Source: Eledone cirrhosa (taxonomy: Eukaryota). From it: a DNA stretch of 64,000 bases. Made by a program: the position numbers and the translations under genes. A model generated the notes under the pieces. It worked only from the letters and a program-made list of their open reading frames with translations, searched no databases and was not told where the DNA came from. Shown piece after piece: positions 223-815 of the stretch (within the stretch, counting starts at the first letter, position 1; each line of letters starts with the position of its first letter). The stretch lies in assembly GCA_964016885.1 (NCBI GenBank), contig OZ024746.1, positions 44,268,001 through 44,332,000 on the forward strand, read 5' to 3'.

Positions 223-815
223 ACAAACAAACCGAACATTATAATAAATGTTCGGTAAACCCATACGTACATATATATATATGTGTGTGCATGTATGTAT
301 ACATATATGTCTGTACGTATACATACATACTTACATTTAAGTATCAGTTGTACTAAGAGTGAGAAATGAAATTTCGTTTCATTCTTTTCCATTTATCGTT
401 TTCGGTCCGCCCAGCCGACTAACTCACTTGATATGCAAATTAGGCTGCTCAGTCGTTAATATCCATAAGGAAAGTATATACTTTCAGACGTTCAATCATC
501 TGGCAGGAAGGTATACGATGCTGACGATAGCTAATAAGCTTGAAACTAGTACATTGTTCCTGTGTCAGTGTTGAACAAAAAGGCGACGATGGTTGCCCGA
601 ACACTGTACGTCGTAATTCGGGCTGTTTGTTTACAAACAAACCGAACATTATAATAAATGTTCGGTAAACCCATACGTACATATATATATGTGTGCATGT
701 ATGTATATATATACATACTACTGTACATCTGTATACATATATGTATGTACGTATATACATACATACTTACATTTAAGTATCAGCCGTACTAAGAGTGAGA
801 AATGAAATTTTGTTT
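223..815 (+). mobile_element. Hammerhead-containing tandem repeat (retrozyme-like non-autonomous retroelement), ~1.4 units of 410 bp
   Basis: accgaacatt recurs at 231 and 641 (period 410) and gagtgagaaatgaaattt recurs near 357 and 793. Homologous to 25466-26916. No credible ORF. Followed by (TA)n at ~823-857. Confidence 0.75.
515..557 (+). ncRNA. Minimal type-I hammerhead ribozyme
   Basis: acgatg-CTGACGA-t-agct(aata)agct-t-GAAA-ctag-TA-cattgt. Stem I acgatg/cattgt, stem II agct/agct, palindromic stem III ACTAGT, predicted GUA cleavage after 551. Confidence 0.8.

Follow-up and report, generated by a model that had tools for sequence, protein, structure and literature searches.

Two groups of related repeat copies lie about 25 kb apart in a stretch of 64,000 nt from the Eledone cirrhosa genome (the window, meaning the whole stretch analysed here), and each carries the letters of a hammerhead ribozyme. 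A sequence-only reading had noted that the G–U wobble in stem I sits at different positions in the two groups while pairing is kept, and had taken this as a sign of selection on RNA structure within a dispersed family. The locus raises the question of whether these copies diverged under selection for an RNA fold and by what route such a family might spread. The features concerned are collected in Table 1.

Table 1 Features of the window that bear on the hammerhead repeat family (PLE, Penelope-like element; RT, reverse transcriptase).
Feature	Position	Strand	Basis
Solo 5′-truncated subfamily A insertion, ~1.4 units, single hammerhead	223..822	+	Sequence, alignment, tree
Type I hammerhead, A type, in the 223..822 copy	515..557	+	Core letters
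Arms of long-range helix	~343-350 and 606-613 (343..613)	+	Pairs covary G-C/A-U between subfamilies
3′ tail region, from the inner to the outer end point of the family; slight erosion at the outer end	765..822	+	
(TA)17 target tract, 3′ of the 223..822 insertion	823..857	.	
Near-complete frameshifted PLE, RT then GIY-YIG-like C-terminus, 5′ and 3′ pseudo-LTRs	20652-25066		
Tandem array of subfamily B (2.3 units, 462 bp each); stops at outer (tailed) end point in (TA)n	25465..26520	-	
B-type type I hammerhead	25771..25813	-	
B-type type I hammerhead	26233..26275	-	
Inverted 5′-truncated B copy, head to head with the array; inner (untailed) end before (TA)n	26520..26918	+	
B-type type I hammerhead within the inverted copy	26634..26676	+	

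The order of elements in a type I hammerhead (CUGANGA / GAAA / UH) is present at 521–527, 542–545 and 550–551. Stem I pairs 515–520 with 552–557 (acgatg/cattgt, 6 bp); the core reads CUGA-C-GA at 521–527, then U528; stem II pairs 529–532 with 537–540 (4 bp, loop aata) above a U–U at 10.1–11.1; U541 and GAAA (542–545) follow, and stem III is the palindrome ACUAGU at 545–550, with a predicted cut after A551. This anatomy fits the canonical metazoan type I form, which the available part of PMC4209133 describes as 6 bp in helix I, 4 bp in helix II, 1–2 bp in helix III and a palindromic loop, and our assignment rests on the core letters together with that published description. No Rfam hammerhead match appeared at the gathering threshold or among the 66 matches at E ≤ 10. 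All three B-type hammerheads of the window read acggtg/catcgt with U7 and loop aaca, so the stem I letters of both versions had been read correctly, as had the differences at core position 7 (C versus U) and in loop II (aata versus aaca). A loose core pattern has 12 matches in the 64-kb window versus 1.6 expected, and the hammerhead matches in the window are not due to chance.

The copy at 223–815 is indeed a diverged relative of the array near 25.5 kb, with ~80% identity in alignment. The 410-bp unit ascribed to it exists as an offset but is explained by the loss of 24 nt from the first partial repeat, and A monomers in tandem measure 429–434 nt. Its long-range helix is damaged at three positions (two C>T, one G>T) and, since it also has only a single hammerhead, this copy is likely inactive and decayed, as far as its sequence tells. 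Each unit contains a long TA-rich hairpin (672–760 and equivalents) that varies in length between units of 419–538 nt. Models of the mir-297/mir-466-like kind match it below threshold, and small RNAs might arise from it; a miRNA reading of these Rfam matches was rejected, as they fall on the TA hairpin and far below the cut-offs. The window also contains an unrelated 64-bp tandem repeat at 1094–1478 (6 copies, 92% matches), a 200-base N run at 12237–12436 and, after that run, degenerate (TA)n tracts at 12437–13823 (1.4 kb) and 15477–20652 (5.2 kb).

Across the 3.0-Gb genome, the tight core pattern has 28,412 exact matches, compared with 2 for a reversed control. Our family sample of 129 loci yielded 207 distinct copies in 101 insertion clusters, and a tree of 90 copies contains groups A (with the 515–557 copy), B (the window array), C (C1 and C2) and D, that is, at least four subfamilies. 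The proposal of a dispersed family with several subfamilies, and not a local satellite, was therefore borne out. Exact matches to the 41-letter hammerhead total 10,032 for the B version, 4,370 for the aata-loop version of C and 1,723 for the A version. First-look candidates (3,187 for A versus 147 for B) had made A appear the main subfamily, an order that the exact counts reverse. Copies diverge by 1.6–3.1% from the consensus of their own subfamily. Monomers of 419–538 nt, with one hammerhead per unit, occur in many copies and in tandem arrays; the units are short and TA-rich, and their ends are PLE-type, not LTR-type. Some copies (L194–L208 and L055:2161) are mosaics of A and C, or of B and C, which points to recombination or to lineages lying between the subfamilies. 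One array, L192 (G000:C6:48407500-48417499), holds at least 21 A-type units in which variant patterns recur, pointing to higher-order duplication at the DNA level after insertion.

As evidence of selection, the G–U shift in stem I did not survive comparison with these copies. T555, which forms the wobble at pair 517/555, is a feature of the 515–557 copy against a subfamily norm of C555: it occurs in 57 of 1,780 otherwise identical A-type hammerheads (3.2%), compared with 1,723 exact matches with C, and C stands at this position in 99% of summed depth in contigs from three runs of one sample, a figure of depth and not of copy number. Position 555 lies in a CpG, so a C>T change turns a G–C pair into G–U without selection. 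The A and B consensus stems differ solely at pair 518/554 (A–U versus G–U, one-sided), and both stem I differences between the 515–557 copy and the array are one-sided changes. The 12 other T555 copies examined sit on different backgrounds, T555 is also found in B copies, and units with and without it occur within the single array L192. Judged from these sequences, T555 is copy-level decay and not a subfamily trait. Compensatory evolution between two subfamilies would account for the retention of all six stem I pairs in both versions, and two further changes of the window copy recur, among the T555 copies examined, only in L008/L137, so that a very small lineage including L008 is possible; given the rarity, CpG context, scattered backgrounds and within-array variability of T555, however, we find this explanation scarcely credible. 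The case is also a caution that G–U 'covariation' between two genomic copies can be mere CpG decay.

Evidence for selection on structure was found elsewhere, between subfamilies. Pair 518/554 is A–U in A, G–U in B and U–G in C. On the C7/aata background, 1,723 copies have A–U, 4,370 U–G, 146 U–U and 59 A–G (3.3% mismatched), a linkage that reflects about one event inherited by descent; most of the 15 U–U copies inspected resemble C or are mosaics of A and C. Besides 518/554, helices in the flanks contain another four two-sided changes. A covariation alignment of 24 of the 64 full units, with 86 pairs, contains 8 pairs changed on both sides, 2 of which are single-row events and 1 of which lies in a poorly aligned stretch. 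The five subfamily-level cases are columns 71–341 (unpaired in A), 75–337, 87–152, 246–282 and 393–405, and the hammerhead helices (helices 11–13) are paired in all 24 rows. We gave no weight to a shuffle control on this alignment (0–1 of 500) because its rows are related and the structure comes from the same alignment.

A cross-subfamily test, in which the structure was folded from one consensus and the changes of the other were scored against 5,000 position shuffles, avoids this circularity because the fold is taken from one subfamily only; TA arms and 4 mosaic or diverged units of the 64 were left out. Broken pairs numbered 5 versus 13.9 in shuffles from A to B (P = 0.0006) and 2 versus 9.5 from A to C2 (P = 0.0002), and were fewer than in shuffles in all seven comparisons (P 0.0002–0.01), which overlap. 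Two-sided changes that kept pairing, which are few events on one small tree, numbered 2 versus 1.0 from A to B (P = 0.26), 2 versus 0.24 from A to C2 (P = 0.02) and 5 versus 1.2 from C2 to B (P = 0.005). Changes private to single copies broke pairs about as often as shuffles in A (38 versus 38.8) and B (20 versus 20.6), with a lean towards fewer in C2 (14 versus 19.3, P = 0.05). Because subfamily changes spare pairs and single-copy changes do not, selection likely acts on the whole-monomer fold in source lineages, with inserted copies drifting afterwards, as judged from these alignments. The claim of selection on RNA structure is thus upheld between subfamilies, though not through the wobble cited for it. 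The catalytic residues, said to be unchanged, are so in all subfamily consensuses, but this is not significant alone (0 changes in 12 core positions versus 0.9–2.1 expected, P = 0.09–0.38). Likewise, the suggested comparison of core and flank rates puts the hammerhead at about half the flank rate (3/43, 2/43 and 4/43 changed positions versus 45/297, 27/286 and 54/286), on changes that are too few. Pair-preserving divergence covers the whole monomer, not the ribozyme alone, and so maps what the RNA needs.

Pair-preserving changes might also arise from DNA-level processes in inverted repeats, such as template switching or hairpin correction in single-stranded cDNA. Many of the helices are short local palindromes, as such processes would have it, and the strand asymmetry between G–U and A–C (9:3, a hand tally, versus 25:29) is not significant (P = 0.11). 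We nonetheless consider this route improbable: two-sided changes link positions ~65 and 260 nt apart, across the hammerhead (columns 87–152, 75–337 and 246–282), the single-copy changes in the same DNA are uncompensated in A and B, and the change at 518/554 yields U–G, which is no DNA pair.

Folding extends the picture from the hammerhead to the monomer. Alone, the 43-mer does not fold as a hammerhead and is no more stable than its shuffles (z −0.8). Monomers gave fold z-scores of −5.0 to −5.6 in four of four cases, better in sense than in antisense, and are 65–74% paired when folded as circles. Pairing through the ACUAGU palindrome gives a double hammerhead that is 12–16 kcal/mol more favourable than two separate monomer folds in five of five natural dimers. 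These models predict a branched monomer and a dimer hammerhead, and the conserved fold pairs both ends of the monomer that runs from cleavage site to cleavage site.

The insertions themselves carry informative scars. Of the 101 clusters, 72 lie on a single strand, as solos or short arrays whose 3′ ends are fixed and whose 5′ ends vary, and 27 of the 29 two-strand clusters have divergent inverted arms (P = 2e-6). The 123 3′ ends concentrate at two points, with 43 at the inner, 62 at the outer and 18 at neither; the outer point lies 57–59 nt beyond the inner one, a distance that constitutes a tail, and (TA)n follows directly after 100 of the 105 ends at either point. Both arms were measured in 24 inverted clusters: 18 pair an inner with an outer end, an arm is eroded in the other 6, and in no cluster are the two ends of the same kind. 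The tail is thus one-sided in all 18 inverted clusters with both ends clean, 2 of which are neighbours and maybe one duplication, and TA tracts lie at the ends of both arms of the insertions. In the available part of 10.1101/2021.04.23.441226, the hallmarks given for PLEs are partial tandems, a TA bias, a tail on one side and an inverted 5′ copy, and insertions of the repeat family show PLE-type marks in their inverted 5′ copy, one-sided tail and microsatellite target. A DNA satellite spread by unequal crossing-over or a Helitron-like rolling circle, its hammerhead look-alike merely passive, would suit the long near-identical arrays (e.g., 13 units of 471 bp) and the missing Rfam match, yet it is very improbable beside so many solos and short arrays that share their 3′ but not their 5′ ends, the constant polarity of the inverted arms and the one-sided tail.

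Potential partners are present in the same genome, where many elements combine RT and GIY-YIG domains (10,596 GIY-YIG candidates, 150 scored loci); the repeat contains no such open frame, its unit being too short. PLE linkers carry, by eye, the CX2-5CxxC motif of Neptune-type PLEs, and three PLE families, among them that of the window PLE, have the same inner and outer ends, with tails of ~51–63 nt by manual count. One young family has many identical 775-aa open frames. Its members (L165, L166, L170, L175, L176, L190 and L191) have a 476-aa frame that overlaps the 775-aa RT-endonuclease frame in another phase, posing the question of a frameshift or an intron. Their 3′ hammerhead again has a U–U as the base of helix II, with a 6-nt palindrome for stem III, and the family has 38,131 first-look candidates. 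The window PLE has a hammerhead-like motif at ~24864–24911 and an inverted 5′ fragment at 20652–20762 that carries the tail (56–60 nt); TA tracts flank it on both sides, the B array sits in the 3′ tract, and its 3′ end recurs in many other loci sampled. Other hammerhead families were seen at L152:19, L174:2352, L171, L167:679, L177:4260, L172:6845 and L177:260, some of them canonical with a stable stem III. Nucleotide homology of the repeat to PLE ends was sought in 38 of the 150 scored GIY-YIG loci and in the window PLE, and none was found there. Copies near PLE loci L172, L173 and L178 were considered as a parent link and set aside, as they look like separate insertions in shared TA tracts.

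These scars would also be at home on a non-autonomous, linear derivative of Penelope, a free pseudo-LTR that PLE proteins move without a circular RNA stage, its tandems being PLE partial tandems expanded in DNA. Every insertion scar is PLE-type, 21–24 of 57 Xenopus families have PLE-end homology according to the available part of 10.64898/2026.07.22.740005, and the U–U base recurs, together with a 6-nt palindrome, in the hammerhead of one PLE family of this genome. We still regard this derivation as unlikely: homology to the sampled PLE families is lacking, the conserved fold joins the two ends of the cleavage-to-cleavage monomer, and related coral, mussel and axolotl repeats give circles in the account available from PMC7229834.

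We consider it probable that the repeat is a non-LTR retrozyme spreading via RNA, through transcription, self-cutting, circles and PLE-type copying into (TA)n, with the 515–557 copy a decayed solo copy. Tandem copies would be transcribed, and the transcripts are predicted to cut themselves as paired hammerheads into monomers of 419–538 nt (about 420–540). The monomers would likely circularise, and a Penelope-like reverse transcriptase-endonuclease would likely reverse-transcribe the circular RNA into (TA)n tracts. Selection would act on source lineages only, while the 515–557 copy drifts. Bolder, and in our judgement possible but rather doubtful, is a circular RNA parasite that resembles viroids and is unrelated in sequence to any Penelope end: its whole 420-nt fold would be selected and recognised by shape, a TA-targeting Neptune-like enzyme would reverse-transcribe it by rolling circle, and subfamilies would recombine at the RNA stage, giving the mosaic A/C copies. 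If this were true, the genome itself would directly prove, through its inverted arms and one-sided tails, which machinery moves animal retrozymes.

As a probable non-LTR retrozyme, the family would belong to a known class; we found no description of it in the main texts of the openly accessible papers searched. Because the class is already known, the hammerhead itself is unsurprising. Non-LTR retrozymes were described in coral, mussel and axolotl by Cervera and de la Pena 2020 (PMC7229834). In the part of that paper available, they resemble the present family in being both tandem and dispersed, each unit holding a single type I hammerhead, with a GC content below 50%, a highly self-paired predicted monomer and co-occurring PLEs. 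In the axolotl HHR_Amex2, helix II likewise has a U–U at its base, and the dimer cleaves better than the monomer. Those retrozymes measure 150–450 bp, whereas the unit here is 419–538 nt with an internal TA hairpin of variable length. Expression as linear and circular RNA characterises the class, and transcripts, cleavage and circles are predicted for the present family. The inverted arms, one-sided tail and TA targeting are seen here, while the words 'inverted' and 'microsatellite' do not occur in the main text of that paper as available.

Neptune and Naiad PLEs, in the available part of Craig et al. (10.1101/2021.04.23.441226), share with the family 5′ truncation, partial tandems, an inverted 5′ copy, a tail at one end, (TA)n targets and a hammerhead in the repeat. 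Unlike them, the repeat unit appears to have no open frame or RT. Its tail of 57–59 nt is longer than the 30–40 bp published there for PLEs (~51–63 nt in the PLEs of this genome), its hammerhead is canonical, in contrast to the minimal form of Neptune and Naiad, and its sequence has no match to the sampled PLE ends. A 2026 preprint (10.64898/2026.07.22.740005), in its available text, argues that non-LTR retrozymes derive from PLEs and reports in vitro cleavage for only 1 of 9 predicted Xenopus retrozymes. The Xenopus elements, traced there to PLE pseudo-LTRs, likewise form monomers, dimers and multimers, and a PLE partnership is proposed for them from co-occurrence and pseudo-LTR homology, whereas our case draws on insertion structure, such homology not having been found in the PLEs sampled. 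The word 'tail' is absent from that preprint text, and the one-sided tail is described here. The published case for the mobiliser of retrozymes thus consists of co-occurrence and end homology; here a Penelope scar lies on the insertions themselves. Young intact PLEs in the same genome are candidate enzymes, and the insertion scars make the PLE partnership testable.
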